A stretch of 64,000 nucleotides of DNA from NCBI GenBank assembly GCA_015062545.1, contig SUUL01000002.1:114995-178994 (forward strand). Reading direction: 5' to 3'. The DNA is from Alphaproteobacteria bacterium (lineage in GTDB: Bacteria > Pseudomonadota > Alphaproteobacteria > Rs-D84). The number at the start of each line of letters is the position of its first letter. Position 1 is the first letter of the stretch. Shown here in pieces: positions 8,723 through 54,632 of this stretch. The notes beneath the pieces were generated by a model, which worked only from the letters and a program-made list of their open reading frames with translations, was not told where the DNA came from and searched no databases. Both the position numbers and the translations under genes were made by a program.

Positions 8723-8949
8723 TTTATCCTGCCTTTTTTTTACATTCTAAACCAAACATTTCACAATTTCAATTCCTTGACGATAAAAAAACTATTTCAG
8801 GGCAGAAAAATCACGTATTTGCAACCGGATATTTTTTGACAATGTGTATTTTACATTCTATACTGATGCTGTGCGATATTTTACGCAATCATGTTTCTGT
8901 AATCCGGAAAAAACTGCTTTGTGTTTGAAATGTAACAAAGGGGGCGAAT

Positions 8950-9975
8950 ATGGGAATTAAACCTGCAAAATTAAATATTGGCGATACGATTGCGACCGTT
9001 TCACTGTCGTGGGGTGGTGCTGGCCTGTTGCCGGAACGCTATGCCCAGGCAAAACGACAACTGGAACAAACATTTGGGGTAAAAGTGATTGAAGCACCAC
9101 ATGCACTGGATGATGCGCAATACCTGTACGAACATCCCGAGATTCGCGCATCTGACATGATGTGGGCGTTCAAAAAACCGGATGTTAAGGCAATAATTTC
9201 TAACATCGGTGGCGATGACACCATTCGTATGTTGCCATATATTGACTGGGATATCATTCGCAATAACCCCAAAATTTTTATGGGATATTCTGATACAACG
9301 GTAAACTGCCACATGTGCCATTATGCAGGACTAAACAGTTTTTATGGTCCGTCAATGTTGGTGCAAATGGCCGAAGCAGGCGGAATATTGCCTTATGTTG
9401 AAAACAGCATGCGCAAGGTTTTATTTGATAATTCACCGGTTGGAATTGTGCCAGAAAACAAAGATGGGTTTACATACGAACGCGTAGATTGGTTTACGCC
9501 TGCGGGGCAAACACAAGTTCGCAAAATGCAACAAACAGACGGATGGCATTGGATTCAAGGTTCGGGCGTTGTTAGTGGCGAACTGTTTGGTGGTTGTATG
9601 GAAGTGATTGAGATGATAAAGGGCACACAAATCTGGAATCCTGATAATTTCAAGGATAAAATTGTATTCTTTGAGATTTCCGAAGAGAATCCAACCCCTG
9701 ATCAGGTTTTGTATTGGCTGCGCAATTATGGGGCGTGTGGAATCTTGCAACAAATGCGTGCCATTATTTTCGGTCGTCCAAAGAATGAAAACAACCCAAA
9801 ATATGAAAAACGTATTTTACAGGCCTTGGCGGAATTTGGTTTAACGGATATGCCAGTTGTAACACACTTTGATATCGGGCATACCGACCCGATTATGGTT
9901 ATGCCTGTTGGATGCGTGGCAAAACTGGATTGCGATAAACACACATTTGAAATCACAGAAAACGCAGTGGTGTAA
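8950..9975 (+). CDS. ldcA: LD-carboxypeptidase (peptidase S66, LdcA/MccF-like)
   Basis: 'IISNIGGDDTIRMLPYIDW...MGYSDTT' with Ser in the SDTT context typical of S66; 341 aa. Confidence 0.7.
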   Translation: MGIKPAKLNIGDTIATVSLSWGGAGLLPERYAQAKRQLEQTFGVKVIEAPHALDDAQYLYEHPEIRASDMMWAFKKPDVKAIISNIGGDDTIRMLPYIDWDIIRNNPKIFMGYSDTTVNCHMCHYAGLNSFYGPSMLVQMAEAGGILPYVENSMRKVLFDNSPVGIVPENKDGFTYERVDWFTPAGQTQVRKMQQTDGWHWIQGSGVVSGELFGGCMEVIEMIKGTQIWNPDNFKDKIVFFEISEENPTPDQVLYWLRNYGACGILQQMRAIIFGRPKNENNPKYEKRILQALAEFGLTDMPVVTHFDIGHTDPIMVMPVGCVAKLDCDKHTFEITENAVV

Positions 9976-10186: not shown

Positions 10187-10621
10187 ATGACTAAAAACGC
10201 GTGTTTTTTTATATACATTTTATGTTCTTGTATGCTGATTCATCAATCGGCAAGATGTGAAAACACAAACCAAAAGTGGGTTGGAAAGTGGTATCTAAAT
10301 GACCAGGACACTGTTTTTGGTGGGGTAATGGATGTTTCTAACTGCGATGATACAACATGTGATTTTAAATTGGAATCGTGGTACGATTTACATATCTGTG
10401 ATGTTGACGGTAAAATAAAAATCAACGGAGACAAGGCAGAATACAACGACAAAAAACATCAATATGACAGAGAGACAGATACGGAATATTTTATTCCTGT
10501 TGGTATATTGTTTCAAATGGAGTCAGAAGATAAAATGAATCTGCGTTTTATCAATGCAGATTCATTTAGTGCTTTTTGTGGTATGCAAGCAACACTTGAA
10601 GGGATATGGATTAGACAATAA
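10187..10621 (+). CDS. hypothetical secreted protein
   Basis: hydrophobic N-terminus, Cys-containing, no known motif. Confidence 0.4.
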   Translation: MTKNACFFIYILCSCMLIHQSARCENTNQKWVGKWYLNDQDTVFGGVMDVSNCDDTTCDFKLESWYDLHICDVDGKIKINGDKAEYNDKKHQYDRETDTEYFIPVGILFQMESEDKMNLRFINADSFSAFCGMQATLEGIWIRQ

Positions 10622-11134
10622 TTAGTATTTATTCGTTCGTATTGTCCAACCATTTTTTGCCGTTTTCCAGTTTTTTGTCCCCTTTAAGTAATCTATTCTT
10701 TCGGTTTTTAGCACAACCATAAATTCGTTGACTTTGCTATCAGGAATCGTATTTATGGATTTAATTGTTTCGCTGCCTATGGCACCATCAACAACCAAGT
10801 TCGCATCCAAAAAAGAATTTAGTGCACGTTGAACTGTCTTTCCGGCACCTCCCATCACATTCATATCAAAAACTGCATCACGTATTCTGTCGTTTGTGAT
10901 TTCTGGGATTCGTGTATTGTCCCAATATTCGTTTTTATAAATTTCTTTGGCCTGTGCGGCTGTTAAATATTTTACATCTGCTGGGAAATTTTTGTCTGGG
11001 TACTTGGCAGAATATCTGTCCAGTGTACTTTGTTTAATTCCCATATTTGTTGGTTCGTCCTTAATCTGATTCTTGCCATCTGTATATCCCCCTTCGGGTT
11101 CTTTTAACTTGTTGTATGCACTTTCAAATTTCAT
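10622..11134 (-). CDS. GH108-family lysozyme with C-terminal PG_binding_3 domain
   Basis: 'EPEGGYTDG...MGI' (EGGY motif), 'FDMNVMGGAGKTVQRALN', 'LVVDGAIGSETIKSIN' peptidoglycan-binding motif. Confidence 0.6.
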   Translation of the reverse strand: MKFESAYNKLKEPEGGYTDGKNQIKDEPTNMGIKQSTLDRYSAKYPDKNFPADVKYLTAAQAKEIYKNEYWDNTRIPEITNDRIRDAVFDMNVMGGAGKTVQRALNSFLDANLVVDGAIGSETIKSINTIPDSKVNEFMVVLKTERIDYLKGTKNWKTAKNGWTIRTNKY

Positions 11135-42089: not shown

Positions 42090-42120
42090 CTGGGGGGGGA
42101 TGTACCCCCCAGTATTATTT
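42090..42120. terminator. bidirectional terminator hairpin (GGGGGGGG-atgta-CCCCCC)
   Basis: GC hairpin flanked by A/T runs on both sides; separates host operon from phage-like cluster. Confidence 0.65.
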
Positions 42121-42375
42121 TATAACTGCACCTTTGATAAGGTTCAGGTCTTCTTTGATGTCGTCTATTTTTATCTGAATTTGACCGATGCCGGTTTCTA
42201 GTATCGTTGTGCGATTTTCCAATGCCGTTATGCGTGAATCCACACGTTCTAGTTCGGTTATGGAAAAATCCTGACGGGCAGCCCAATATATTACGCCCCC
42301 AATAAACGCAATTAAAAACCAACTGTCGCGTAACAAATCCAGCAATCCAAATGCCGTGGCAGCCCGTGTCGTCAT
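42115..42375 (-). CDS. phage-cluster hypothetical protein with TM segment
   Basis: 86 aa, one hydrophobic helix, coiled-coil C-terminus. Confidence 0.4.
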   Translation of the reverse strand: MTTRAATAFGLLDLLRDSWFLIAFIGGVIYWAARQDFSITELERVDSRITALENRTTILETGIGQIQIKIDDIKEDLNLIKGAVIK

Positions 42376-42376: not shown

Positions 42377-42577
42377 TTATTTATCCCCCCTGCCCCGCGT
42401 TATGTGCGTTTCAATCTGTTGTACCAATGCACGCTGGGATTCATGCCAACGCAACTGAAAATCTGTCGCGTTGCATCCCAATGTGCGATTCAATATCGTG
42501 TCACGCAAATGCTGTAATACCGCCATACCCGCAGGTGTGGAAAAACAGCGCGCATACTGTAAATCAATATCTGTCAT
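42377..42577 (-). CDS. phage-cluster hypothetical protein
   Basis: 66-aa ORF tightly packed after portal gene. Confidence 0.35.
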   Translation of the reverse strand: MTDIDLQYARCFSTPAGMAVLQHLRDTILNRTLGCNATDFQLRWHESQRALVQQIETHITRGRGDK

Positions 42578-42580: not shown

Positions 42581-43810
42581 TTATTCCCCCAAGGCCGTTT
42601 CAATCGCCGTCATTTGGGCAATAGGTGCAATATATTTCAATTCTGCATCACCATGTAATGTTATTGGCGCAATAACACCACGACTGGATAATATCTGTAA
42701 TCCACGGTCACATAACGGCCTGATAAATTCATGCAACAAGCGACCATACGTCGCACCCAATATACGCATCATGTCTGCGTTGCGTGCCATAATTTCTGTG
42801 GCTGTCATTTCTTTTTCAGACAATAACCCCAGTCTGTCCGCCAATAATGCATGGCGAATACGTTCACGCAAATCTTTCAACACCAGTTGCGATACATCAA
42901 AGTCCGCACCACTGGCCAATGGCGTTAAGCCTGACGAACCAACCGCCTTGGGGATAATTGCGCCGGGGGTTAAATTGATGTTATTCAGGTTTATTACACC
43001 GTCATCGTCCGCCTGCCAGATGCCGGATACGGCAATTGTTGCATTCTTTAATACCAATTCTACAACCTTGTTGGCGGTTTTTATATCCGGTAATGCACGC
43101 AAGACAGGACCGCGACCATATAATTCACCCGATGATACAGACCAACGAAAGATAATATATGGATTCGTTTCAAATGTACCTGTGGACACAATATTATTTT
43201 CAATATCACCACCAACATCCAACCAGGCTGTAAATTCTGTACCAACCAATGACTGGACCAGTTTTAATGGTGTTTCTGGATTCTGTTTAATGGTGTCGCG
43301 CAGGTTGTTGGGCGGTGTCCATGTTGGATAACGTTCCATGACTTCACATGCCGGCATTGATGTAGTGTGAAATACTGCGTTGGGTAAAATGGCAATGTCT
43401 GACATCGGAATCGCTGTAAATGTAAACGCAGATGACGCGCCAATCGGCGATTGTGCCATAAATAAGCAAGCCGTCCCCAAAACGACCAAGTCCATATAAC
43501 ATTGATGTATAACTGTGTAAAAATTAGAATCGTTCAGATTTGCACGTAATGCGTTTGTGGCATATTCTGCATCTGGTGACATGATGCTTTCTGGGACAAG
43601 TGTTAACCACATAGATTCTGGCGGGGTTAACAATGTATAAATTGATGCCGCCAAATTATCTGCCGCATCCATCGCAGTTGCATCAAACAATGTTGCCGCA
43701 TCATCATCGGCAGTTGGCATGGTATATCTGCGCGCGCTGTCCCAGCGGTTTTGCCATGGGGCGCGCATATCCAAGGCGCGTTTATATAAACTTTGCAGGT
43801 TTTGTTGCAT
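42581..43810 (-). CDS. T7-like portal (head-tail connector, gp8-like) protein
   Basis: N-terminal 'YKRALDMRAPWQNRWDSARRYTMPT...DNLAASIYTLLTPPESMWLTL' parallels T7 gp8 'YERLKNDRAPYETRAQNCAQYTIPS...NNLASKLMLALFPMQTWMRLTI' (from memory). Confidence 0.6.
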   Translation of the reverse strand: MQQNLQSLYKRALDMRAPWQNRWDSARRYTMPTADDDAATLFDATAMDAADNLAASIYTLLTPPESMWLTLVPESIMSPDAEYATNALRANLNDSNFYTVIHQCYMDLVVLGTACLFMAQSPIGASSAFTFTAIPMSDIAILPNAVFHTTSMPACEVMERYPTWTPPNNLRDTIKQNPETPLKLVQSLVGTEFTAWLDVGGDIENNIVSTGTFETNPYIIFRWSVSSGELYGRGPVLRALPDIKTANKVVELVLKNATIAVSGIWQADDDGVINLNNINLTPGAIIPKAVGSSGLTPLASGADFDVSQLVLKDLRERIRHALLADRLGLLSEKEMTATEIMARNADMMRILGATYGRLLHEFIRPLCDRGLQILSSRGVIAPITLHGDAELKYIAPIAQMTAIETALGE

Positions 43811-43839: not shown

Positions 43840-44706
43840 TTATATGTTGAAATTCGTGTTGGCTGAAAATGTCTTTATCGTGCCACCCAATGGGCGAATA
43901 AGTGTTGCAGGATGTGCAATCGCACCGGCAACGGCATCCAGGCCGTCATCATGCATGCCATGCGCCATGGGAGACCACCCCAACATTTCTGCCATCAAAG
44001 GGGTCTTTTGCACGCGAATATGTGCATGCAAATGTCCCGTTGTTAAAACTGGTTCAATCGCGTCTAAAATTCTGTCTGATTTGGCCCGAACGTTTGATAC
44101 GCGGGTTACGTAAATGCATAAGCCACGCCGCGTGGCACAATCGCGCATTATTTCCGGCAAGCCACCACCAATCCCGTTCGTTTCAATAGTTATCCGATGC
44201 AAACCACGCGCATGCATAAAATCCAGAACTTGATTGCACTGATTGGACAATGGATATTGTTCCGTATCAGACACCGTCAAATACAAAATGTCATGAATAA
44301 ATACATTGCGCGCCTTGTCATCACGATACAGTAACACACACGCACTGCCGTCACGATTGCGGCGACCACTGGATGGATCCCAATATAAAATGCTGCCGGT
44401 TATTAAATTATTACCCAGTTTTGCCGTGCGTGGTTCAAATTCGTCATCATAGAAATGCAGACTGCCGGGATCAAGGCGCGCACGTTCGGGCGAAATAAAT
44501 TCCAACATCATTTGTGCCGAAAAATGTCGCGCACCAACCGTTTCACGCATACTGTTTATCTTTTCAATCGGAAAAAGTTCCGGCCACGCGGGATTTCCCG
44601 CCGTATCAACAATGGGAATTTTTAATAATTTATACCCACTTAAAAAAGGCGTTGAAAAAGCAAAATTTTCATATACCATGGGCATAGAAGAAAAGGATTT
44701 TGACAT
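43840..44706 (-). CDS. terminase large subunit, C-terminal nuclease domain (separate ORF)
   Basis: 'DPSSGRRNRDGSACVLLY' first catalytic Asp motif and terminal 'MHDDGLDAVAGAI' motif; the open frame has no upstream ATG beyond an internal ATG at 44706 preceded by a GGGGG RBS. Confidence 0.6.
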   Translation of the reverse strand: MSKSFSSMPMVYENFAFSTPFLSGYKLLKIPIVDTAGNPAWPELFPIEKINSMRETVGARHFSAQMMLEFISPERARLDPGSLHFYDDEFEPRTAKLGNNLITGSILYWDPSSGRRNRDGSACVLLYRDDKARNVFIHDILYLTVSDTEQYPLSNQCNQVLDFMHARGLHRITIETNGIGGGLPEIMRDCATRRGLCIYVTRVSNVRAKSDRILDAIEPVLTTGHLHAHIRVQKTPLMAEMLGWSPMAHGMHDDGLDAVAGAIAHPATLIRPLGGTIKTFSANTNFNI

Positions 44707-46270
44707 GGATTTTACCCCCAAAACATTACCCACCAATCTGGAAGCAGAACAGGCCGTATTGGCCGCGGTTTTAATGAATAATCGCGCATTGGAACGTGTG
44801 TCAGAATTCTTGCGGGCAGAACACTTTTCACACCCCGCACATCAAGAAATATTCCGTCTGGCAGAACGTCAATTCGCCGCAGGCATACCGTTTGATATTA
44901 TTACCGCAAAAAACTATCTGGATCAGCAAGGCGTGTTGGAATCTGTTGGCGGGGTTGATTATCTGACACAATTATCTGGCGCAGGTGCAACCGTTGTTAA
45001 TGTAGAGCAATATGGACGTATCGTTTATGAACACGCATTACGCCGTGATTTGATTGCGTTGGGCCAAGATATTACAGACAAGGCCTTTATTGAAGATTTG
45101 GATAATCCTGTGGCGCGTCAGATTGAATTGGCCGAACAGAAACTGTTTGATATGGCAACCGCAGGTGCATCTGAACGCGAAGTAACATCCATTTCAACCG
45201 CATTGGAATCTGCATTGAAAGAAGCAGAAATCGCATACAAGGCCGATGGGCAGTTATCCGGTCTGACAACTGGATTGACCGCACTGGATAAATCAATCAG
45301 TGGCTTGCACCATTCTGACTTGATTATTATCGCGGGCCGTCCGGCGATGGGTAAGACAACATTGGCGATGAATATCGCGTTTAATGCCGCCAATGCCATT
45401 GCATACAATCGTGCAAATCAAAATTATAAAGGCGCGGTTGTGTTCTTTAGTCTTGAAATGTCGGCATCACAGTTGGCGGCGCGTGTGCTGTCTTCACAAT
45501 CCAAAATTCCTGCATCTGCAATGCGTGAAGGAACACTGACCGATGAAGATTTCTTGAAAATGTCACAATATTCTGCAGCCATTGGTAAAGTTCCGTTATT
45601 CATTGATGACACGCCAGGTATGTCCGTACCAATGATGCGTACACGCGCCAGAAGACTGGCACGCAAACATGGCGGTATTGCATTAATCGTCATTGACTAT
45701 CTGCAGTTGATGACCGCCCCAGGTGGCAAACGCAGCGATAACCGGGTACAGGAAATTTCTGAAATTACCCGTGGTCTGAAAATGCTGGCCAAGGAACTGG
45801 ACGTGCCTGTAATCGCACTGTCACAGTTGTCGCGAAGCGTGGAATCACGTGATGACAAACGACCACAGTTGGCTGACTTGCGCGAATCAGGGTCTATTGA
45901 ACAAGACGCGGACATCGTTATGTTTACGTATCGCGAAGAATATTATCTGCAAAATCGCGACCCGTCCGAAAGATTATCAAACACAACAAACAGCACAATG
46001 GTCGAATCGTGGCAAAAAAGACTGGAACGCGCACGCGGCAAAGCAGATATTATTATCGGTAAAAACCGTCACGGCCGTCCAGAAACTGTACGAACTGCAT
46101 TCTTTGGGGATTACAGCTTGTTCGATAACCTGGACGAATTCCAAACACGGGGCGAAAATGAATTTGCACAACCTGCACCAACAATTTCCGCAGCCGCATT
46201 GGGGCCAGACCCCGAATTTGAACCAACCGCCATCGATATTGATGCAATCCCAGATGATATGCCAATGTAA
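44678..46270 (+). CDS. dnaB: replicative DNA helicase DnaB
   Basis: 'LEAEQAVLAAVL' N-domain, Walker A 'AGRPAMGKTT', 'IVIDYLQLM', 'VIALSQLSR'; start is either 44678 or 44705. Confidence 0.85.
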   Translation: MGIEEKDFDMDFTPKTLPTNLEAEQAVLAAVLMNNRALERVSEFLRAEHFSHPAHQEIFRLAERQFAAGIPFDIITAKNYLDQQGVLESVGGVDYLTQLSGAGATVVNVEQYGRIVYEHALRRDLIALGQDITDKAFIEDLDNPVARQIELAEQKLFDMATAGASEREVTSISTALESALKEAEIAYKADGQLSGLTTGLTALDKSISGLHHSDLIIIAGRPAMGKTTLAMNIAFNAANAIAYNRANQNYKGAVVFFSLEMSASQLAARVLSSQSKIPASAMREGTLTDEDFLKMSQYSAAIGKVPLFIDDTPGMSVPMMRTRARRLARKHGGIALIVIDYLQLMTAPGGKRSDNRVQEISEITRGLKMLAKELDVPVIALSQLSRSVESRDDKRPQLADLRESGSIEQDADIVMFTYREEYYLQNRDPSERLSNTTNSTMVESWQKRLERARGKADIIIGKNRHGRPETVRTAFFGDYSLFDNLDEFQTRGENEFAQPAPTISAAALGPDPEFEPTAIDIDAIPDDMPM

Positions 46271-46347
46271 TTGATAATTATTTTCTTGCGCCGTGCCGAT
46301 AAATTGACTATTATTTTGTCAAGAAATAACTGTTTTAGGAGTTAGAC

Positions 46348-47355
46348 ATGGCACAAGAAGAAATTATCTTTCCAAATAATATTCGTAACATCCGTTTGGC
46401 AAATGGTATGAAAATGACAGAACTGGCGCGTCAGGCCGGGTTGTCTTTGTCCGCTGTTTCCAAAATCGAAAAAGGTGTGCGCCGATTAAACCAAAAACAG
46501 TTGTTGAATATTTGCAATATCTTGGGATGTAAATTGTCCGATATTTTCATCAAAGAATCCGATGATGTCGCAAACCAATGGCAAGATGAAATTAAACGCC
46601 GTATGACAGACAATGAAAATAATGGTCTGAAAATATTCGGCAGTGGTCTGCGCAAAATCCGCCAACAGGCCGGCAAAACAATCGCCCGTGCCGCAAAAGA
46701 TGCAGGTATGACATTGTCTGTATATCACAAGATAGAAGTCGGACAACGTGAAATATATACCAATGAAATTGAACCGTTGGCAAAATCTTTTGCATTAGGC
46801 GCAGAAGAACTGTTTGAAAAAATCGCGAATCTGTACAAGTCTGGCGAACTGAACAAACACATGAACAAGGTCAAAGAACGTGTAAAATCTGTATTGGAAC
46901 CCGGCAGTCCATTGTCTGGTATCGATATGGGTGGTGGACTGTATGGCGCAAAATTGTATGACAGTGCACGTAAAAAACTGATTCCTGTGTTTGGAACACC
47001 ATCTGGCAAAGCATTAACCTTGAAGAAATCAGATAAAACCATGATTGTCGCACCAATATCACTGGAGGGACGTAATGGTATTTACGCAGTGGTACCAAAT
47101 GCCAAACGTTTGGGTGGAATCATACCTGAAAAATCTTATGTGTTTGCAGATGCGTTGGTAACACCAAAAGTTGGTGATATGGCAATCTGTATGGATGTTG
47201 ATTTTGATACACTGGATGCAGATACCAACGTGGTCGCGCATATCGTAACAGTAAAACAAGATGCCAAGGGTAAGATTTACGGTCAAGCCATGTTCCCAGA
47301 AGAAAAAATTAATGCCAAAACAATGCACAAAATTATTATGATTGTTATGGAATAA
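46348..47355 (+). CDS. CI/LexA-like repressor: two HTH_XRE domains + S24 peptidase-like C-terminus
   Basis: two 'LS.SAVSKIEKG / ...TLSVYHKIEVG' XRE HTH units; C-terminal beta-rich domain with Ser/Lys spacing like the S24 family. Confidence 0.55.
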   Translation: MAQEEIIFPNNIRNIRLANGMKMTELARQAGLSLSAVSKIEKGVRRLNQKQLLNICNILGCKLSDIFIKESDDVANQWQDEIKRRMTDNENNGLKIFGSGLRKIRQQAGKTIARAAKDAGMTLSVYHKIEVGQREIYTNEIEPLAKSFALGAEELFEKIANLYKSGELNKHMNKVKERVKSVLEPGSPLSGIDMGGGLYGAKLYDSARKKLIPVFGTPSGKALTLKKSDKTMIVAPISLEGRNGIYAVVPNAKRLGGIIPEKSYVFADALVTPKVGDMAICMDVDFDTLDADTNVVAHIVTVKQDAKGKIYGQAMFPEEKINAKTMHKIIMIVME

Positions 47356-47385
47356 TTACCCCCCTTTGGAAAGGAGAGAGCAAAC

Positions 47386-48024
47386 ATGAAAGCAACCGCA
47401 CGCGTAACTGCACAAAGACTGTTAAATCTGTATCGGCAAGAACATGTAATTATTGGCGGATGGGCCGCCGTAAACCCAATATTTGTCCAAGATGCAACTG
47501 ATATGGTTATGCAAGAGTTGGCCGATATGCCAACAGGAAATGCATTAATCGCACATATCAATAATCTGCGCAGCGGTAAAACCCCAATGAATTCTATTGA
47601 ACGCGAATTATTACCATACGGTGGCATGATGGCAGAAGCGTTGCCATCAATCACACTGAACCAAAACCAATGGCAAGAATTGACCCAGGCAATAGAACAA
47701 TTTACCCCAAATCAGCCAGGTTTGGACAAGTTTACTGCGTTGGATGTGGTACGTCAATTCGGTGCAGAATGGCCAACCGCAATTCGTGCAATCCTGACAG
47801 AACGCCCGCATTTGTTAGAAAAGTGGGCAACCATTAACCAAACATATAACGCATATAAATTATGGAATACCGCACATGAAATTATCGCAAATCCACTGTC
47901 GGAACGTGTGCGCGCCCAAGTACAGGCAGACATGCCAGAATATGAAACTTATTTGCCGATGTTTGGTGATGCAGGTTCGGAATTATTGGTAAAACTGCGC
48001 ACTTTTATCAGCAGTCTGAATTAG
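47386..48024 (+). CDS. hypothetical protein
   Basis: 212-aa ORF; its stop overlaps the convergent terminase ATPase ORF stop. Confidence 0.4.
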   Translation: MKATARVTAQRLLNLYRQEHVIIGGWAAVNPIFVQDATDMVMQELADMPTGNALIAHINNLRSGKTPMNSIERELLPYGGMMAEALPSITLNQNQWQELTQAIEQFTPNQPGLDKFTALDVVRQFGAEWPTAIRAILTERPHLLEKWATINQTYNAYKLWNTAHEIIANPLSERVRAQVQADMPEYETYLPMFGDAGSELLVKLRTFISSLN

Positions 48025-48626
48025 TTTCCGATTGCAGTGCGGTAAATCGTATCGTACGCATGCGGTGTACCAATATATATCATCGTTCCGGTTGGCGACA
48101 ATATAAAATCTAATTCACGTAATCTTTCACGCAAATTTTCACGTTTCTGTGCGGTGTTTGCCGTGTTTGGAACCTCTACGTCATCGCATATAATCAAATC
48201 TGCACGCATACCGGTGATATTTCCGTGTACCCCTTGGCAAATTACAGACGGTTCGCGAATACCAATCGGGCGTTTAACAGTGATACGACCCGTGGCCCAC
48301 TCTTTTTTACCAACAGGTATCATATCAGTACACCATGGATGATTTTCTAAAATATGCCTGATATGACCAACCATACGTGTTGCCAGACCACTTTCCGCCG
48401 ACAAAATCAAAATTCTGGTTTCTGGGCGCAGGTACAAAACACATGCTGCAAAAACGCCAACCACCGTGGATTTGCCAGAATGACGAAACGCCATCAACAA
48501 TCCACGATGTGGCGACACAGATAATATATCAACCAAGAAATTCATTATTCGCCGATGATGTGCCGGTGTCTGATATCCCAAAACACGATTCCATTCGTCT
48601 AAAAACGCGTTAAATTCCGTATTCAT
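48021..48626 (-). CDS. terminase large subunit, N-terminal ATPase domain (separate ORF)
   Basis: Walker A 'AFRHSGKST', Walker B 'LIICDDVE', motif III 'YIGTPH'; terminates right after motif III. Confidence 0.7.
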   Translation of the reverse strand: MNTEFNAFLDEWNRVLGYQTPAHHRRIMNFLVDILSVSPHRGLLMAFRHSGKSTVVGVFAACVLYLRPETRILILSAESGLATRMVGHIRHILENHPWCTDMIPVGKKEWATGRITVKRPIGIREPSVICQGVHGNITGMRADLIICDDVEVPNTANTAQKRENLRERLRELDFILSPTGTMIYIGTPHAYDTIYRTAIGN

Positions 48627-48650
48627 TTTGGCAATATCCCAAGAAGCAGG

Positions 48651-48998
48651 TTATCCAACAATGTCATCCAATCTGGATAATAAAGATTGTAATAATTTGG
48701 GCTTTTTGACGGCGGATTCTTTAATTTTCTTTAAGTTATTTTTGCGTTTTTCTTCATAAGGTGCCGCCGTTTCTGATTTCAGACGTTTCAAAACCGCCCC
48801 TTGGGTTATGCCATCACCAGACACGCCAGATGCACCATATTTGGCGCGTTGACTGGCCAAAACCTTTTTTATCAGATTTGTTTTTTCAGTTTCGTCTGCC
48901 GCCATTTGCGCCAAGATTTCTTTACGCGCAGATTTTGCAGATTTTTTGGCATCTTTGTATTCCAAGATGTCCGTTACATCAGATACAATTTGTCCCAT
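48651..48998 (-). CDS. hypothetical protein (position suggests terminase small subunit)
   Basis: 115-aa basic/helical protein immediately upstream of terminase ATPase ORF. Confidence 0.3.
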   Translation of the reverse strand: MGQIVSDVTDILEYKDAKKSAKSARKEILAQMAADETEKTNLIKKVLASQRAKYGASGVSGDGITQGAVLKRLKSETAAPYEEKRKNNLKKIKESAVKKPKLLQSLLSRLDDIVG

Positions 48999-49022
48999 AT
49001 TTTATCCTTTTTTTTAATAAGT

Positions 49023-50753
49023 TTAGACAGAATACCAACCATGTATGCACACAGATGAAACTGTGGCGGGGTATGCCGCGCTGCCATGTAATGTCCATAA
49101 TGGACGCGTGCCGTCATGACTGGTTCCTAAACAATTTAACGATACATCGCCGGTAAAACCGTTGGATGCAGTGTCATAAATGTCATTAGGCAACACAGCC
49201 TGATGAGTGTTTATATAAATAGATTTCGTATCAATGATACGCACAACAATCTTGCGTAATTTTATCCGGGTAACATTATGATTAGATATGCGTAATGGTA
49301 ATGAAGATGCACAAAATGAATAGTCATATTCATCTGCATCACGTAACGCATTACTGTCAAAATATTCCAAGAATACTTGGCCATCGCGCAATACAACAAC
49401 ATACGTTTTCTGATTACATACGGTGACAGATAAAAATTGTCCCGATGTTCTGTATGTACCCCATGCAGATACACCCAAAGCCGCATTTTGATTCAAAACC
49501 GCCATGGTGCCGTCTTGTTTTACGATAAACAACTGGTGCAAGGATTCGTTGTATGCAATATCCAATGGATTTTGTATCAAATGCTTGGATAACATGCTTA
49601 GATCATTGGCATTGTAATGTTCACCCAATTCATCCAGACTTAGTTCGCGAATATCGCAACCGTTGGCAGAAACAAAAACTGTTGCGCCTTCTATGCGTTG
49701 GGGCGGTAAGTATCGCGCGGAATAAGAACCAACAGATGTGTGCTGTTTGATATCAACAGACGAAGGTGTCAGGGGTTTACTGGATATGGCCCATTCGCCA
49801 ACATTGGTTAATATTTGCAAATTATCACTGCTGACCACGGTACATATTTGTTGACGCTGTTGCGACAACAAAGACAGAAAGATGCCTTCGTCATCCAAGC
49901 CTGTGCCAACAGAAAAGTTTTGGTGATTGCCGACATGTGACATCCATATCCCAGATGGCCAATCACGTGAACCACCAAATACCAATCTGTCTTGGTGAAA
50001 TGTTATACTGCGCGGCCAACCACGATGTTTACTAAAGGCGGCCTCGCGCCAATCTGTGATTGCGGTATCTGTTGCAGTATAAGAACCATTGGTAAATACT
50101 GTGACCTGGGTTTCATTAATATATTCTGTAATAACCCACTGACGATTCTGAAGATACAGACGTGTATTAACATAATCAGGTGTCCAAAACGCACGATTGG
50201 TGCTGAACACTGCGTAATTATTTCCCAATGAACTGGTGCTGATTTGAATCTGAACATCAGATGCATCTTCAAATTTTACAAATGGAATATTCAATGTCAT
50301 GTCTGAATCGTTGCGCGAAAAAGCAAAATCAGACATATAAAATCTGCCACTGTCCCAATATAATGTTTGTGGCACATAATCAGGATGAACAAATATCATC
50401 GTCCCAAAACGCTGGGCATATTGAATATTAAACAAGTCATCATATCCCCAAGGTGTTATCAAATCTTGGAATAAGTTATTGTCACGATATATAAACATGT
50501 GACAATCGGTCAATACAATTAAATATTCTAAATTGTCCGATGCAGAAAATGGTATCAAACGTGCATGACCGTCCAGTAACGCAACAGATGTTAAACCACA
50601 TCGCCGCCGCAGACCACCACCTGACAAGACATCCATATTTTCCAGACGTGACAGACCATGAATATTATCATGGTTGTAAAATTCTGGGGCAACTTCGCCA
50701 TTTGCAAATGAACTTTGTGTTTTTATAAAATCAGACATGTTATATTTCCCCAT
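49023..50753 (-). CDS. T7 gp12-like tail tubular protein B (short form)
   Basis: N-terminal 'FANGEVAPEFYNHDNIHGLSRLENMDVLSGGGLRRR' parallels T7 gp12 'LKGGISQQPDILRYPDQGSRQVNGWSSETEGLQKRPP' (from memory); follows the gp11-like gene. Confidence 0.45.
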   Translation of the reverse strand: MGKYNMSDFIKTQSSFANGEVAPEFYNHDNIHGLSRLENMDVLSGGGLRRRCGLTSVALLDGHARLIPFSASDNLEYLIVLTDCHMFIYRDNNLFQDLITPWGYDDLFNIQYAQRFGTMIFVHPDYVPQTLYWDSGRFYMSDFAFSRNDSDMTLNIPFVKFEDASDVQIQISTSSLGNNYAVFSTNRAFWTPDYVNTRLYLQNRQWVITEYINETQVTVFTNGSYTATDTAITDWREAAFSKHRGWPRSITFHQDRLVFGGSRDWPSGIWMSHVGNHQNFSVGTGLDDEGIFLSLLSQQRQQICTVVSSDNLQILTNVGEWAISSKPLTPSSVDIKQHTSVGSYSARYLPPQRIEGATVFVSANGCDIRELSLDELGEHYNANDLSMLSKHLIQNPLDIAYNESLHQLFIVKQDGTMAVLNQNAALGVSAWGTYRTSGQFLSVTVCNQKTYVVVLRDGQVFLEYFDSNALRDADEYDYSFCASSLPLRISNHNVTRIKLRKIVVRIIDTKSIYINTHQAVLPNDIYDTASNGFTGDVSLNCLGTSHDGTRPLWTLHGSAAYPATVSSVCIHGWYSV

Positions 50754-50760
50754 TTAATAA

Positions 50761-51318
50761 TTAAAAACGTGTACTGATTAGTGAAAACTCTTGGATTCCA
50801 TCAGCCACCGATATTGTACTGTCTATGAATTTTGCCGTTTGCAATTCTGATTCATACAGTGCCGCCAACGTGCGAAATACGGTCTGATTTCCCGTCAATG
50901 GAATACAAAATTCCATTGCCAAGCGTGTTGCCAACATGGATACAAAATAACTGGGGTATGTGTCTGGTGTCATACGCACAATCGCCAAAATTTTAATTGA
51001 TTCACTGGACGATTCTATGTATTTTCCAACCAATTTGCCATCAGATTTCAACACACGCAGAACATTATCAGGAACCAAAAAATTACCATCTGAATTTTTT
51101 CTCAATGATATTTCTTGGGTTGCAAAATGCCACGGATGTATTGACAGCAAAGAATCCGCCACAGCATCATACAACGTACGCGCCAACCGCGAATTCACCG
51201 AATCATCTGTCCAGGATTGAATTGGACTTTCACCCAACTTTAACAAGGCCATTGAACATAAATCTAGTTTTGTAAGCATTGGTATTCCTTTTTGTATTAT
51301 AAAAAACAAGGGCGACAC
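50761..51318 (-). CDS. T7 gp11-like tail tubular protein A
   Basis: 'LDLCSMALLKLGESPIQSWTDDSVNSRLARTLYDAVADSLLSIHPWHF' parallels T7 gp11 '[22 protein letters not shown]...[21 protein letters not shown]'. Confidence 0.55.
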   Translation of the reverse strand: MSPLFFIIQKGIPMLTKLDLCSMALLKLGESPIQSWTDDSVNSRLARTLYDAVADSLLSIHPWHFATQEISLRKNSDGNFLVPDNVLRVLKSDGKLVGKYIESSSESIKILAIVRMTPDTYPSYFVSMLATRLAMEFCIPLTGNQTVFRTLAALYESELQTAKFIDSTISVADGIQEFSLISTRF

Positions 51319-51343
51319 AAAATGCCGCCCGACAATATATAAA

Positions 51344-51574
51344 TTAAGCCAACGAAACCGTTGTTACATTCAATTCTGTTATATTAATTTTCTTGATGGC
51401 TGTATTATCAGATGCATTAATCATGATAATGTCGCCAATGTTCATCAATGTTTTAACATTGTTGAAATATCCATTGGCGGTAATTGTTGCCAATGTTTCA
51501 TTTGCACTGTAATGCCACAATGTAAATCCATTAGCATACGCGATAACAGATAAATTTTTATTCTGAAATGCCAT
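51344..51574 (-). CDS. hypothetical protein downstream of capsid gene
   Basis: 76-aa ORF. Confidence 0.3.
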   Translation of the reverse strand: MAFQNKNLSVIAYANGFTLWHYSANETLATITANGYFNNVKTLMNIGDIIMINASDNTAIKKINITELNVTTVSLA

Positions 51575-51614: not shown

Positions 51615-52436
51615 TTATTGTGCATCTGAACATTTAACGCGAACGATGCCATCACCATCAATCAAAACTGCGCCTTGGGACATGCTGTTGCTGATAAAGT
51701 GTGCCGCACGTTCACCATGCCAAGAAATATCTGTTTTGACTTCTTGACCACATGCATGACCGATGCTGGATGCGTGATAAATAAAGCAATCGCGGTTATC
51801 AGATGACACAGGTAAACCATTATACAACACCCATGTAATACCCAACCATTTGCGCGCTTCAAATCCATTTACCAATGGGCTGGCATTACCAACATAATCT
51901 GCAGACACAAATTCATCCATTGACAGCAATTCATTCCACTGATGTACACCAACAACCGCAAAGCGGCGACCATCATCTGGGACATCATTTGTGTTCAACA
52001 CTTCAACCGCAGACAAGATTAAATCTTTGGTCAAACCGGTGGAATAGTCACCAACATTTGCAGTTGCTGTATTCATGGCAGACACAATCAATTCATCTGT
52101 CTTGCGACCCAATGCGTACGCACCCGCAGATGCGACAACGCGGCGTTCATCAACATTTACCTTTAATTCATCCAATGCATCAACCCAATCGCCCGCATAA
52201 TAATCTTGCAAAAGACATTCTACGGGTTCATGATTCAAATTCATCACAGGAACAATGCCATGACGAGATTTGGTACTGGCGGTGCCACGACCAACTTTTT
52301 GAAAAGTTGTAGATGCGCCAACAACACCAGATTTACTGCGTACTGTTGAACGTAATTTGGTGCCCATTTGCTGATAAGCCAAATGAACATCTGCTTCGAA
52401 TTGTTTCACAAAAACATTATCTATGGAAACAGACAT
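51615..52436 (-). CDS. T7-like major capsid protein (gp10 family)
   Basis: 'FEADVHLAYQQMGTKLRSTVRSKSGVVGASTTFQKVGRGTAS' parallels T7 gp10A 'VLTAFARTSVTTSRHMVRSISSGKSAQFPVLGRTQAA'; start at the Met with an AAAGGA RBS. Confidence 0.65.
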   Translation of the reverse strand: MSVSIDNVFVKQFEADVHLAYQQMGTKLRSTVRSKSGVVGASTTFQKVGRGTASTKSRHGIVPVMNLNHEPVECLLQDYYAGDWVDALDELKVNVDERRVVASAGAYALGRKTDELIVSAMNTATANVGDYSTGLTKDLILSAVEVLNTNDVPDDGRRFAVVGVHQWNELLSMDEFVSADYVGNASPLVNGFEARKWLGITWVLYNGLPVSSDNRDCFIYHASSIGHACGQEVKTDISWHGERAAHFISNSMSQGAVLIDGDGIVRVKCSDAQ

Positions 52437-52654
52437 AAAAAATCCTTTGGTTAAAAAGTTAAAATTACGATGTGATAACACACATCACCAAAATTTTGTA
52501 TTTTGGTTATGCAAATTAATGCGCCATAAAAAACAAAAGCTATCGGGTTCGTATAAAACGAATTATCCATAAAAAATATCAGTCAGACTGTACGTAATCA
52601 TCTGACTGATACTTTTGAAAAACCCCCGCATCGCGGGGGCTGATATATTGTTAA

Positions 52655-53092
52655 TTATTTTTTCTTAACAACTTTTTTTGCAGCTGGTTTTTTTGCAACT
52701 ACTTTCTTTGCAACTGGTTTTTTTGCAACCGGTTTTTTTGCAACTGGTTTTTTTGCAGCTACTTTTTTTGCAACTGCTTTTTTTGCAACTGGTTTTTTTG
52801 CAACTACTTTTTTTGCAACTGGCTTTTTTGCAGCTACTTTCTTTGCAACTGGCTTTTTTGCAACTGCTTTTTTTGCAACTGGCTTTTTTGCAGCTACTTT
52901 TTTTGCAACTGGTTTTTTAGCTGCTACTTTTTTTGCAACTGGTTTTTTTGCAACAGGTTTTTTAGCTGCTACTTTTTTTGCAACTGGTTTAACCGCCGCT
53001 TTCTTTGCAGGTGCAGCTTTTTTTGCAACAGGTTTTGCAACAGGTTTAACCGCTGCTTTCTTTGCCGCAGATTTTCTAAATAAGAATGCCAT
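52655..53092 (-). CDS. Lys/Ala-rich histone H1-like (Hc/AlgP-like) DNA-binding protein
   Basis: 145 aa, almost entirely [10 protein letters not shown] pentapeptide repeats encoded by 15-nt tandem DNA repeats. Confidence 0.6.
52676..53070. repeat. tandem 15-nt repeat array (coding for [10 protein letters not shown] units)
   Basis: visible periodic 'ttttttgcaactggt/ttttttgcagctact' units. Confidence 0.85.
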
Positions 53093-53198: not shown

Positions 53199-53855
53199 TT
53201 ATGAATATAATTTTTTAAAACCATTTTCTATTTTTCTGATGTATTCAGAATCATTATCACGCCAATATTTTGGATCACGCATCATACGCCGCAAATCTGC
53301 ATCTGTTAAATTTTGCGTATCATTATTTGCAGTATGAACATCTGGTTCCATCGATTGCATCATCTTGTACATGCTTTGAATTCCCTGGGGTGTGGCGCAT
53401 AACGCATCAAATGCATCACGTGGTAAAAATTTTTCACCAAATGAATTTATTGCAACCAGTGCATCTTTCATTTTTTCATCACCACCGAAAAAATGTTTTA
53501 ATTCATTTATTGCTTTGCTTTCATTTTGAACAGAATACAAATCTGAAATCACAGGTGATAAAAATTCATTTGCAATGTTATAAATTTTTTCAACTTGCGA
53601 ACAGGTTAATCCTATTTCAAAAAATTTGTTACGTAAATTTTCATCATCATATAATTCGTGTGTTGGATATTCTGATGCAGATTCTGGAACACCAATCGCA
53701 CGATTAAATTTATAACGCGTTTGTTCGTCAGAATTTTCATTTGGAACAGATATCATTGTTCCAATCTTTTTTTCTAATTCAGTGTATGATTTTATTAATG
53801 CTTCTGAATTAAGTGTACCGTCTTTGTTCAAAAATTTTTCTGGGATATTATCCAT
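53199..53855 (-). CDS. hypothetical protein (scaffolding-protein position)
   Basis: acidic helical 218-aa protein between lysis genes and capsid, at the T7 gp9 position; AAAGGA RBS. Confidence 0.3.
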   Translation of the reverse strand: MDNIPEKFLNKDGTLNSEALIKSYTELEKKIGTMISVPNENSDEQTRYKFNRAIGVPESASEYPTHELYDDENLRNKFFEIGLTCSQVEKIYNIANEFLSPVISDLYSVQNESKAINELKHFFGGDEKMKDALVAINSFGEKFLPRDAFDALCATPQGIQSMYKMMQSMEPDVHTANNDTQNLTDADLRRMMRDPKYWRDNDSEYIRKIENGFKKLYS

Positions 53856-54045
53856 TATTTTTTCCTTTGGTTTCATTAGATTTACGCAGAAAATAAATTC
53901 CCCCTAATGTGAATATCGCTTGCAACATCGTAAATATATCTGTGTCGCCAACCAGGTATGCCGCAACCGCAGATATAATTCCCGTTGCAGAAATTATATA
54001 TGTGCGATATCCAGATAACTGACCGCCCTTGATTATTTTTTTCAT
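53848..54045 (-). CDS. holin-like small membrane protein
   Basis: 65 aa, two hydrophobic segments, charged C-terminus; directly downstream of endolysin. Confidence 0.4.
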   Translation of the reverse strand: MKKIIKGGQLSGYRTYIISATGIISAVAAYLVGDTDIFTMLQAIFTLGGIYFLRKSNETKGKNNG

Positions 54046-54056: not shown

Positions 54057-54467
54057 TTATAAGTAAAACAACATGCCATCAATATCTGCAATATACCCAC
54101 GCGCAACCGCCCAAGACGGCAAAACATCTGTGTTATGAAATCTGGTCGCACCAAAACACATATCAACCAACCCACCAGACAACATGCGGCGCGCAACACG
54201 TACACACATCTGAAAACCACGATTATTTGCGGGAACACTTAACCGTGAATAACGTGCAGAATCAGTACATAATGCGTCAAAAATATTTTTATCTGTCACA
54301 ATACTGTATATGTCTGTACCAGATGCATCAGATAAATTTTTTATCATTGATGTCAGTGCTTCTACACCAAGTAAAGTATTTGCACCCGTTTGTGCATAAA
54401 CAACACGTGCAATTTTGTATGCCAACGCAGCACCCGTATCGGTGTTCTTGATTAATGTCATTTGCAT
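54057..54467 (-). CDS. cell-wall hydrolase (SleB/CwlJ Hydrolase_2 family) endolysin
   Basis: 'IARVVYAQTGANTLLGVEALTSMIKN...IYSIVTDKNIFDAL' matches the Hydrolase_2 pattern (AEARGE..G..AVA.VVLNR...QF). Confidence 0.5.
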   Translation of the reverse strand: MQMTLIKNTDTGAALAYKIARVVYAQTGANTLLGVEALTSMIKNLSDASGTDIYSIVTDKNIFDALCTDSARYSRLSVPANNRGFQMCVRVARRMLSGGLVDMCFGATRFHNTDVLPSWAVARGYIADIDGMLFYL

Positions 54468-54632
54468 GCCGAAAAAACCTTTTGGTAAAAAAATTGCCAT
54501 GCATAATGCATGACAATAAAAAAACCACAACGCATGTTGTGGGCAGTATCTTAGCTGTTCATGTTCATGATGTTATCATATTTTTACTTAAAAGTCAAGA
54601 TAAAAATATAAACCCGCGGATTTCCGTGGCTT

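Follow-up and report, generated by a model that had tools for sequence, protein, structure and literature searches.

A T7-type large terminase encoded in two pieces on either side of a dnaB operon in Candidatus Enterousia

In the window analysed here (the whole stretch of DNA, 64,000 nucleotides from an uncultured organism), the large terminase of a phage-like cluster is encoded by two ORFs of 201 and 288 aa, located on the same strand and 3.3 kb apart, instead of by one polypeptide of ~480–590 aa; a dnaB operon lies between them on the opposite strand. Both ORFs are conserved across species of Candidatus Enterousia (order Rs-D84), and sequence comparisons make it rather probable that together they give a working terminase of two subunits, part of a head/tail cluster that derives from a T7-type phage, resembles a GTA, and is inherited vertically. 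All the ORFs remain where a first-pass annotation of this DNA had placed them.

The two terminase genes and the position of the break

TerL-N (48021..48626, minus strand; 201 aa) is the part of a T7-type large terminase that holds the RecA-type ATPase core, with Walker A (AFRHSGKST), Walker B (LIICDDVEVP), and motif III (GTPH), and its C-terminus lies 6–12 residues beyond motif III. In profile searches, it matches PF03237 and positions 271–462 of phrog_38, and it alone reaches 221.8 bits over positions 1–191 of the 500 of NCBIfam NF033889 (termin_lrg_T7; cut-off 150). TerL-C (43840..44706 in the ORF 43840..44736, minus strand; 288 aa) starts with a new 19-residue N-terminus, followed by a beta-strand and the lid subdomain of the ATPase domain and then by an RNase-H-like nuclease with motifs WDPS..D, ETNG, and HDDGLDA; it matches positions 483–703 of phrog_38 as well as PF22530 and scores 98 bits over positions 332–500 of the 500 of termin_lrg_T7. 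The terminase also aligns with PDB 8dgc_E, the TerL of phage PhiV-1 (alignment E 1.5e-20); on the strength of these matches, the initial assignment to the T7 family holds. Walker A, Walker B with its catalytic Glu, motif III, and the acidic nuclease residues are all at least 98% conserved in 69–80 species.

The ATPase ORF had been read as ending just past motif III, with which profile matches and relatives agree. Its last residues are GTPHAYDTIYRTAIGN, followed by the stop codon, and TerL-C homology picks up at PFLSGY, the exact continuation point in intact relatives (480–515 aa, 47–52% identity); the break is just as seamless when the TerL of phage TPWB-05 serves as reference. TerL-N and TerL-C together thus amount to one complete T7-type large terminase, broken without loss or duplication. 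The alignment to intact TerL proteins that had been called for maps the break to loop 197–208 of P0124, an intact relative whose AF2 model has a pLDDT of 93; this loop lies between the motif-III strand and strand 215–219, and the lid helices are found at 236–255. Since the P74-26 ATPase domain aligns over ~273 columns, the ATPase domain would extend to about residue 265. The cut is within the ATPase domain, past motif III, rather than at the ATPase/nuclease boundary where it had originally been drawn; it falls at the hinge of the ATPase core and the lid. This hinge presumably moves while DNA is packaged, and leaving it unjoined could make for a weaker motor. The variable tail of TerL-N amounts to 1–12 residues and the leader of TerL-C to 13–19, and the halves sum to the intact length; neither half can therefore hold a split intein (an N-intein of ~100 aa; a C-intein of ~35 aa with HN then Cys/Ser/Thr).

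The dnaB module and the overlapping signals at its junctions

The module between the halves opens with dnaB (44705..46270, plus strand), which codes for a host-type replicative DNA helicase of 521 aa with both its N- and C-terminal domains (PF00772, PF03796), 84–96% identical between species. It exceeds the cut-offs of the cellular equivalogs NF006606 (616.8 bits, cut-off 540) and TIGR00665 (505.7, cut-off 385) and remains under that of TIGR03600 phage_DnaB; this host-type match supports the earlier suggestion, made for the case that this dnaB is the only copy in the genome, that the cluster houses the replicative helicase of the host. The protein also matches phrog_19 (DnaB-like helicase) and bears a C-terminal acidic extension.

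Next comes a tandem HTH (XRE-type) regulator of 335 aa (46348..47355, plus strand), whose Pfam matches are its two HTH_3 domains alone; the first HTH is almost invariant in 78 species, and the C-terminal domain is uncharacterised. This gene had been described as S24/LexA-like, but no Peptidase_S24 domain (PF00717-type) was detected at E ≤ 5 in the C-terminal halves of three regulator orthologues, and the label of a LexA/CI-type S24 autocleaving repressor is thus not supported. Its promoter (46286..46322, plus strand; TTGCGC, 17 nt, TATTAT) is kept in 77 loci and overlaps a palindrome, TTGAC-N9-GTCAA (46304–46322), which has one other match in the window and is a candidate auto-operator of the HTH gene. 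The third ORF (47386..48024, plus strand) encodes an all-alpha protein of 212 aa and unknown function. It has 1258 homologues at E ≤ 0.001; among the 120 listed, all measure 211–226 aa, carry no Pfam domain, and come from this Alphaproteobacteria group. Its AF2 model (pLDDT 84) found no fold match in PDB or BFVD.

Both junctions are tight. The dnaB promoter, Shine-Dalgarno, and ATG (44652..44707, plus strand) are embedded antisense in TerL-C codons 1–19: a −35 box TTGAAA (44652–44657), a 16-nt spacer, and a −10 box TACCAT (44674–44679) precede the Shine-Dalgarno AAGGA (44693–44697) and the ATG (44705–44707). This promoter, also found by a promoter scan, has the consensus AAAAAAGGCGTTGAAAAAGC..ATATACyAT, largely conserved at ≥90% in 73 loci, and four-fold-site entropy in the corresponding stretch of TerL-C is 0.03–0.33 versus ~1.5 elsewhere. 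Reciprocally, the TerL-C start (44706..44704, minus strand) and its GGGGG Shine-Dalgarno (44719..44715) are antisense in dnaB codons 1–5, the GGGGG itself facing codons 3–5. The two start codons have CATG (44704–44707) in common, as was noticed from the start; this holds in 71 of 73 loci. Met 44706, already proposed as the TerL-C start, is retained because it is the sole available Met in a third of the species; the downstream Met codons given by automatic gene callers are wrong. At the opposite end, TerL-N and the 212-aa ORF converge and overlap by 4 nt (48021..48024), another feature correctly described at first sight: the overlap is exact in 57 of the 80 relatives, with the ends always ≤16 nt apart, and it leaves no room for a terminator. 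Searches returned no conserved promoter for TerL-C in the 330 nt ahead of it, no repeats, direct or inverted, at the terminase junctions, no transposase or recombinase in the module (the lack of a transposase and of inverted repeats having been remarked upon before), and no intron or other RNA family in the 64-kb window.

The surrounding cluster and its conservation

The T7-type head/tail/packaging cluster occupies ~12.5 kb of the minus strand (~42.1–54.6 kb), where all genes are of structural, packaging, or lysis type, apart from interleaved host genes. It begins with an operon leader (54467..54598) comprising a conserved promoter (TTGACT 54598–54593, 17 nt, TAACAT 54575–54570), a box that is likewise conserved, and a tandem pair of intrinsic terminators (54542–54525 and 54517–54493), in which 12 of the 14 pairs show compensatory changes among 26 species. 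There follow a cell-wall hydrolase (54057–54467), a small ORF, a scaffold protein (53199–53876), an inserted Hc2 histone-like gene (52655–53092), and the major capsid protein (51615–52481; 84–96% identical between species). The genes immediately upstream of TerL-N (48651..51574), assigned through phrog_376, phrog_394, phrog_18004, and synteny, are the tail tubular A-like (50761–51318) and tail tubular B-like (49023–50753) proteins together with ORFs of 115 and 76 aa. Directly downstream of TerL-C lies the portal gene (Head-tail_con, 42581..43810; PF12236, E 3e-81; 81–95% identical between species), and the cluster closes with a Bbp19-family protein (42377–42577), an 86-aa ORF (42115–42375), and a bidirectional terminator (42090–42112). 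Neither a small terminase nor a tail fibre nor internal core proteins were recognised; a tail-fibre-like gene of ~180 aa, absent from this window, is present in about three quarters of the relatives. The flanks (33.7–42.1 kb and 54.6–64 kb) contain housekeeping and cell-surface genes and several ORFs without family match, and no integrase, phage replication, or lysogeny module was found in the annotated 33.7–64 kb.

A comparison with relatives had been recommended, and we extracted 20-kb loci from 80 Candidatus Enterousia species genomes, to which 56 IMG/VR contigs were added. The split layout is identical in every informative locus of the former as well as in the latter, and the cluster adjoins rpsF-rplI and priA in the same position and order in the 80 species genomes. 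It is also the same across independent ENA, JGI, Logan, and NCBI assemblies and in a circular metaFlye long-read chromosome (L067, OZ007020.1; 958,618 bp); the identical protein is recorded in 31 blocks of the sequence collection, and the 23 contigs inspected, ENA and JGI assemblies included, share this layout. Both TerL ORFs are intact in all complete loci, and the best 120 of 845 TerL-N homologues are all 198–221 aa long. In the outgroup L170, dnaB also lies inside the split, with just 58% identity; Enterousia together with L170 form a clade in all 100 bootstrap replicates. These comparisons date the split to before at least 80 species and an outgroup diverged. In other lineages, single contigs carry stops at the same terminase loop.

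TerL-N and TerL-C are under strong purifying selection: across every usable pair dN/dS is 0.10 and 0.165, respectively, falling to 0.04 and 0.05 when dS is kept below 0.7, values comparable to those of dnaB and portal in a cluster ranging from 0.03 to 0.21. TerL-C is nonetheless the least conserved enzyme of the cluster (57–82% identity). Pairwise distances were correlated with those of dnaB and lplA for TerL-C (rho 0.80) and portal (0.68), and weakly so for TerL-N (0.37), while dnaB and lplA distances follow each other (rho 0.69). In one species, L043, the genes from capsid to tail and those from TerL-C to portal are gone whereas TerL-N is kept, so that the cluster is dispensable.

A two-part motor, its alternatives, and known systems

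As both halves have stayed intact under selection in well over a hundred species, a motor operating in two parts is the most likely reading; the functional two-piece terminase, one of three explanations offered by the first-pass annotation, is thus favoured by the seamless sum, the intact ORFs, the invariant motifs, and the low dN/dS. TerL-N would supply the RecA-type core up to motif III, and TerL-C the next beta-strand, the lid, and the nuclease; since the ATPase fold itself is cut, each piece should need the other to fold, and the two chains may reassemble non-covalently into one terminase protomer. The cluster itself has a stable place in the core chromosome of Candidatus Enterousia and passes down vertically, as the correlated distances and the housekeeping genes on its flanks indicate, in the manner of a domesticated phage of GTA type. 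Between the halves, the host dnaB operon keeps its own promoter on the opposite strand; TerL-C and portal, with no conserved promoter of their own, would most likely be transcribed by polymerase that started at the hydrolase-proximal operon promoter and read through, a route that is conjectural because no TerL-C promoter was found. The resulting RNA would be antisense to the whole dnaB operon and collide head-on with dnaB transcription, and the gating of the operon promoter by two tandem terminators suggests antitermination control. We can speculate further, with little confidence, that this is the built-in switch of a previously unrecognised T7-derived GTA family, coupling particle production to replication arrest: once the terminators are released, RNA polymerase would proceed antisense through the 212-aa gene, the HTH gene, and dnaB to TerL-C and portal, so that complete terminase would be made only while the helicase operon and its regulator are silenced head-on, in a terminal subpopulation.

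One has to keep in mind that the halves could be real and selected and yet no longer serve as a packaging motor, one or both having been repurposed (as nuclease, as ATPase, in replication, or in defence), with particles perhaps empty or non-transferring. The cut through the ATPase fold itself would fit such a reading, as would the weak tracking of host genes by TerL-N compared with TerL-C, the unrecognised small terminase, fibre, and core proteins, and the retention of TerL-N in L043 despite the deletion of capsid, tail, and portal. We nevertheless hold it unlikely, given that Walker A, Walker B, motif III, and the acidic nuclease motifs are all invariant, that the halves still neighbour portal, capsid, scaffold, and tail genes under equal constraint, and that neither TerL-N nor TerL-C matched any defence-system model. 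Less likely again is a phage-type dnaB that belongs to the element itself and is left over from its replication module: its match to phrog_19, its acidic extension, and its location inside a phage-derived cluster in two distant lineages would agree with this origin, but T7-type phages use gp4-type helicases. Its scores against cellular and phage profiles, its vicinity to rpsF-rplI and priA, and distances that track lplA all point to the host, and two copies are unlikely in genomes of 0.75–1.0 Mb (PMC12306168).

Rejoining before action, through excision or inversion of the 3.3-kb module, RNA trans-splicing, or a split intein, seems very improbable: the junctions have no direct or inverted repeats, the module no recombinase, and the window no intron or RNA family; halves of intact length leave no space for intein fragments, the TerL-C leader has no intein motifs, and excision would take dnaB out too. 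Split genes rejoined by programmed excision or split inteins are known elsewhere, and these precedents are what speaks for it. A pseudogene pair recently broken by a cassette in a decaying prophage, which had been considered at the outset, is slightly more improbable still; decay of the cluster in L043 and the stops at the same loop in single contigs of other lineages would be compatible with it, but a split older than at least 80 species and an outgroup, in a conserved layout, with ORFs intact everywhere and dN/dS of about 0.04–0.16, excludes a recent disruption for practical purposes. All sources are metagenome assemblies, so that an assembly or binning artefact was also envisaged from the beginning; the identical layout in the ENA, JGI, Logan, and NCBI assemblies and in the circular L067 chromosome leaves it a negligible probability.

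Large terminases are treated as single-chain motors in which ATPase core, lid, and nuclease communicate via covalent linkers. If nature has long maintained a version severed between core and lid, assembly of a two-chain protomer must be possible, and this version would offer a ready-made system for dissecting core-lid coupling. Our results also point to an undescribed, vertically inherited cluster of T7-like particle genes in gut Alphaproteobacteria with genomes below 1 Mb, in which the upkeep of 12 kb of phage genes implies a benefit. The promoter of an essential dnaB placed antisense within a phage gene is a striking overlap of coding and regulatory information, and the dnaB/TerL-C overlap is a candidate for antisense coupling of replication and particle production.

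Among known systems, T7 gp19 and PhiV-1 TerL (8dgc chain E) share with this terminase their sequence family, fold, Walker A/B, motif III, and RNase-H-like nuclease motifs, and T7-type phages its gene order with scaffold, capsid, tail tubular A and B, and portal; here, however, the terminase occupies two genes 3.3 kb apart with its ATPase domain cut, in a chromosome-fixed cluster devoid of RNA polymerase, DNA polymerase, and gp4-type helicase. The Rhodobacter RcGTA and the Bartonella BaGTA are likewise phage-derived head/tail/packaging clusters of Alphaproteobacteria without integration or phage replication genes, vertically inherited under purifying selection, in lineages with reduced genomes too (compare PMC9254644). 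RcGTA is siphovirus-like, whereas the ancestry here is that of a T7-like podovirus, with a split terminase and interleaved host genes. Terminase coding sequences interrupted by introns, inteins, or homing-endonuclease genes also exist, but there a single chain is restored and a selfish element on the same strand makes up the insert, while here an essential host operon fills the gap on the opposite strand, with no rejoining signal. The gp16 of phi29 (PDB 7jqq) shows that a packaging ATPase can work without a covalently attached active nuclease; its ATPase domain is complete in one chain, unlike the divided one described here. Finally, the Listeria excludon consists of neighbouring opposite-strand genes with overlapping transcription signals, so that their transcripts must overlap. 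Divergent starts sharing CATG and convergent ends overlapping by 4 nt recall this arrangement, with the difference that the overlap joins an essential replication gene to the gene of a phage-derived motor.

A terminase in two pieces around a dnaB module

A large terminase split in two and straddling a dnaB module is confirmed in the window. Its N-terminal piece (TerL-N) is a 201-aa minus-strand ORF (48626..48021) matching PF03237 and phrog_38 (positions 271-462), and it covers positions 1-191 of the NCBIfam model termin_lrg_T7 with 221.8 bits for a cut-off of 150; it can also be aligned with the T7-type terminases PDB 8dgc and 4bij, at their residues 51-212. The C-terminal piece (TerL-C), also on the minus strand (44736..43840), matches PF22530, phrog_38 at positions 483-703 and termin_lrg_T7 at positions 332-500. 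Between the two lie, on the plus strand, the genes that we call the module: dnaB (44705..46270), a 335-aa regulator with two XRE-type HTH domains (46348..47355), and u212, a 212-aa ORF (47386..48024). Both halves belong to a minus-strand cluster of T7-type head, tail and packaging genes (about 42.1-54.6 kb), with the portal gene directly 3' of TerL-C and, upstream of TerL-N, genes for tail tubular A- and B-like proteins, capsid, scaffold and a cell-wall hydrolase; the annotated flanks contain housekeeping and cell-surface genes (rpsF, rplI, priA, lplA, rseP-like, bamA, miaA, gap, glycosyltransferases). Across the window, Rfam returned three tRNAs only, and no introns or riboswitches.

When 1.8 billion cluster representatives were searched, intact relatives of TerL-N came up, with lengths of 450-515 aa and 47-52% identity. 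In an alignment with six intact terminases, a check that the first-pass annotation had proposed, the break is seamless: TerL-N ends in ...GTPHAYDTIYRTAIGN*, and TerL-C homology restarts at PFLSGYKLLKIPIVD, the exact continuation point of the intact proteins, with nothing lost and nothing duplicated. Comparison with the TerL of phage TPWB-05 gives the identical picture. In the AlphaFold model of P0124, an intact relative (pLDDT 93), the break falls in a loop (residues 197-208) that links the strand with motif III at its end to another strand (215-219), followed by the lid helices (236-255) and by the nuclease, which starts near residue 270; the isolated ATPase domain of P74-26 aligns with this model over about 273 columns. 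TerL-C therefore comprises the nuclease and, ahead of it, the final ~60 residues of the ATPase domain, so that the first description as an ATPase ORF and a nuclease ORF was right about the two ORFs and slightly simplified as to the cut, which lies inside the ATPase domain and not at its boundary. The T7-family identity proposed at that stage is borne out by the termin_lrg_T7 score and by the best PDB match of the P0124 model, the T7-like PhiV-1 terminase (E 4.5e-30). Inteins were rejected, as neither half has room for one.

Other features of the cluster deserve mention. A Lys/Ala-rich Hc2 (histone H1-like) gene (52655-53092, minus strand; PF07382, E 1.7e-20) lies between the scaffold and capsid genes with its own conserved promoter and two terminators, and is a second host-type transcription unit lodged within the cluster. 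Right after the small ORF following the capsid gene, a terminator-like hairpin (GGGCGGCA..TGTCGCCC and a T run; 51310-51330, minus strand) may be an attenuator raising capsid expression relative to that of the tail genes; related loci have a GC-rich hairpin in this gap too. Between p115 (a small ORF named, like p76 and p86, by its length) and TerL-N, about 58/78 related loci (e.g., L006, L030, and L084) carry a ~180-aa gene resembling a tail-fibre N-terminus (MYKISY..DG.TTEF.F.FPFF), which is wholly absent from the window (48627-48650) and from about 16 other loci.

Age and origin of the layout

The exact TerL-N protein is recorded in 31 blocks of the collection, and among the 23 contigs that we read are ENA and JGI assemblies in which the neighbouring genes are the same. 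Among 845 TerL-N homologues, each of the best 120 has a length of 198-221 aa and an identity of 77-100%. GTDB species-representative genomes hold 193 stretches with a TerL-N relative; the best 80 all come from Candidatus Enterousia or gut Alphaproteobacteria, and include a circular metaFlye chromosome of 958,618 bp. Genomes of Enterousia, which is placed in the order Rs-D84, measure 0.75-1.0 Mb (PMC12306168). Comparison with the clusters of relatives, also suggested in the first-pass annotation, recovers the split layout in every informative locus among these 80: wherever there is enough flank, the order is hydrolase, scaffold, capsid, p76, tail A, tail B, p115, and TerL-N, then u212, HTH, and dnaB on the opposite strand, then TerL-C, portal, Bbp19, and p86. 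IMG/VR contributes 279 further relatives; TerL-N, u212, dnaB, and TerL-C occur together in 56/80 of those examined, and most of the remaining contigs stop short of the four markers. A distant contig, L170 (GC 51%, dnaB 58% identical), has TerL-N, dnaB, and TerL-C in matching relative orientation, with an 834-aa gene as the other companion and with normal intergenic spacers and terminators. Given this layout and the monophyly of Enterousia plus L170 in a neighbour-joining (NJ) tree (100/100 bootstraps), the split with dnaB inside is older than the genus.

Three explanations had been put forward from the sequence: a functional two-piece terminase, disruption of the gene by a replication/regulation cassette, or an assembly artefact. 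An artefact is excluded by the agreement between ENA and JGI assemblies, by the circular metaFlye chromosome and by the 80 species loci. A recent disruption by a cassette is excluded, since the layout is old and both halves are under selection (see below). The functional two-piece terminase is the best-supported of these options, with the seamless break, selection and the kept motifs in its favour, and we hold it to be fairly likely. As to how the present order arose, reasoning on gene orientations makes a single inversion impossible, and the module therefore arrived by insertion or transposition. In line with the initial remark that neither a transposase nor inverted repeats mark a recent insertion, we found no repeats at either junction and no recombinase able to drive excision or inversion.

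Junctions and module genes

At the left junction, the dnaB start codon (44705-44707) overlaps that of TerL-C (44706..44704) in CATG, a shared palindrome first seen in the window and kept in 71/73 loci. The internal Met at 44706, already proposed as the TerL-C start, is the sole available one in 23 loci, and this settles where TerL-C begins. TerL-C codons 1 to ~20 show almost no synonymous variation (four-fold-site entropy 0.03-0.33 vs. about 1.5 elsewhere), the strongest dip of its kind in the whole cluster, because the opposite strand holds a promoter, TTGAAA, 16 nt, and TAC(C/T)AT. This is the dnaB promoter (plus strand; −35 at 44652-44657, −10 at 44674-44679, SD at 44693-44697), and its block AAAAAAGGCGTTGAAAAAGC..ATATACyAT is largely at least 90% conserved across 73 loci. 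Two forms of the dnaB leader exist. The one with an 18-21-nt segment (44680-44697 in the window) bearing an AAGGA SD is that of about two thirds of the species; in the third without the 18-nt SD segment the −10 sits 7 nt from the ATG, so that the dnaB mRNA is predicted to be nearly leaderless there. TerL-C is 5-6 residues shorter in species without the segment, and its residues ahead of PFL, which are not alignable with intact terminases, in effect spell out the dnaB promoter and leader read antisense. It thus appears that the dnaB operon came with its promoter and that TerL-C took its new start from the incoming operon. At the right junction, the overlapping stops of TerL-N and u212, also reported initially, recur as a 4-nt overlap in 57/80 loci, and the ends are never more than 16 nt apart, which leaves no room for a terminator.

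The module DnaB scores above the cellular equivalog cut-offs (NF006606, 617 vs. 540; TIGR00665, 506 vs. 385) and below that of the phage_DnaB model; judging from its sequence, it is most likely the replicative helicase. The neighbouring regulator had been called a tandem-HTH S24/LexA-like repressor: the two HTH domains stand, the first being nearly invariant, and no S24 signal was found in the C-terminal half. Its conserved promoter (46286-46322, plus strand) is overlapped by a palindrome, TTGAC-N9-GTCAA (TTGACTATTATTTTGTCAA; 46304-46322), which does not recur at the cluster's other promoters and is probably an auto-operator. For u212, Pfam, PHROG, NCBIfam, and PADLOC gave zero matches, and its confident all-alpha model had no fold match in PDB or BFVD; the gene appears to be confined to the Enterousia-type Alphaproteobacteria group. 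In one MAG (L006, JAFTTY010000029.1), the otherwise highly conserved HTH gene has an in-frame stop (NEI*PLAK); the same MAG contains a second locus copy, L034, of a type identical to another species' locus, which is probably bin contamination.

Selection, expression and kinship

Both halves are single uninterrupted ORFs in all complete loci. Nei-Gojobori dN/dS for pairs with dS<1.5 (in brackets, dS<0.7) is 0.10 (0.04) for TerL-N, 0.165 (0.05) for TerL-C, 0.07 (0.03) for dnaB, 0.07 (0.05) for portal, and 0.08 (0.06) for capsid. Walker A, Walker B, and motif III, the lid W-P and S-Q-M motifs, and nuclease WDPS..D, ETNG, and HDDGLDA are at least 98% conserved, and the mean conservation of the capsid protein equals that of DnaB. 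For the structural genes, pairwise distances correlate with those of dnaB and lplA (rho 0.80 for TerL-C, 0.68 for portal, 0.67 for scaffold, 0.54 for capsid, and 0.37 for TerL-N). These genomes therefore contain the cluster as a constrained, vertically inherited part, and we rejected a recent prophage; that both halves are selected proteins is very probable. In one Enterousia species (L043, JAZLBQ010000007.1, 9605-14577), the cluster has decayed by two deletions, from the capsid middle to p115 and from TerL-C residue 95 to the portal, with TerL-N and the dnaB module intact; that species, at least, can therefore do without the cluster.

No conserved sigma-70 promoter was found within 330 nt upstream of TerL-C (the best candidate, at −294, occurs in 18/71 loci only), and dnaB, the HTH gene, and u212 show no synonymous-variation dips hinting at an antisense promoter, the sole dip in the module being at the conserved DnaB motif RESGSIEQDAD. 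The operon leader (54467-54598, minus strand) consists, in that order, of a promoter, a box CATAAACAGCACAAAT, two tandem intrinsic terminators, and the hydrolase start codon; promoter and box are conserved, and 12/14 predicted base pairs of the terminators show compensatory changes across 26 species. Such a layout is typical of antitermination and suggests this control for the whole phage-like operon. Terminator-resistant polymerase from the operon head would get past the Hc2-like gene's terminators as well; it could then run antisense through the dnaB operon into TerL-C, portal, Bbp19, and p86, and halt at the bidirectional terminator at 42090-42112; we infer that TerL-C is reached by this read-through.

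Terminases cut at the same loop as that of Enterousia occur elsewhere. In two near-identical HiFi genomes (L088/L089), adjacent ORFs of 210 and 271/284 aa overlap in ATGGGTGA (10600-10700), and in L172 a 202-aa ORF is followed by a 270-nt spacer (8787-9056) and a TerL-C ORF. The TerL-C N-terminus of L088/L089 carries a variable PKFPE repeat; the L172 spacer contains a near-consensus TTGACA-17-TATAAT and a terminator hairpin, and therefore looks like a tiny transcription unit. Outside the split clade, 52/53 relatives of L172 and L170 have an intact TerL, and in the NJ tree the split forms do not make up a single clade (0/100 bootstraps). We rejected these cases as support from independent splits, L088/L089 and L172 being one lineage each and L092 and L090 single short contigs; together they at most hint that the loop tolerates a break, and function is not thereby proven. 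Related phage-like contigs that have an intact terminase and the gene order of the cluster also exist, namely L086 (capsid 57% identical) and L174. The IMG/VR provirus calls L174-L216 and L220-L228, roughly 10-22 kb long (many of 17-20 kb from isolate-genome ids), have an intact terminase 45-51% identical to TerL-N and share scaffold, capsid, tail A/B, portal, Bbp19, and hydrolase genes with the cluster; the order in L174 is TerL, hydrolase, portal, Bbp19, scaffold, and capsid. These calls make up a sizeable family of small provirus-like regions, which may be small phages, satellites or gene-transfer-agent-like elements.

The best-supported reading is thus that a domesticated T7-like cluster encodes a functional two-chain terminase, with the host dnaB operon between its halves and interwoven regulatory signals at the junction. 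The two halves quite plausibly rebuild a working terminase, and the proposal that the cluster acts as a gene transfer agent (GTA) is a tentative one. Neither a split terminase nor a phage-like cluster from Enterousia or Rs-D84 is described in the literature that we searched. In its sequence and fold the protein is a T7-type terminase, but it is encoded as two polypeptides instead of a single one. The cluster resembles a GTA in having structural genes only, in its vertical inheritance and in the selection acting on it; the known GTA families have an ancestry unlike that of the Enterousia cluster.
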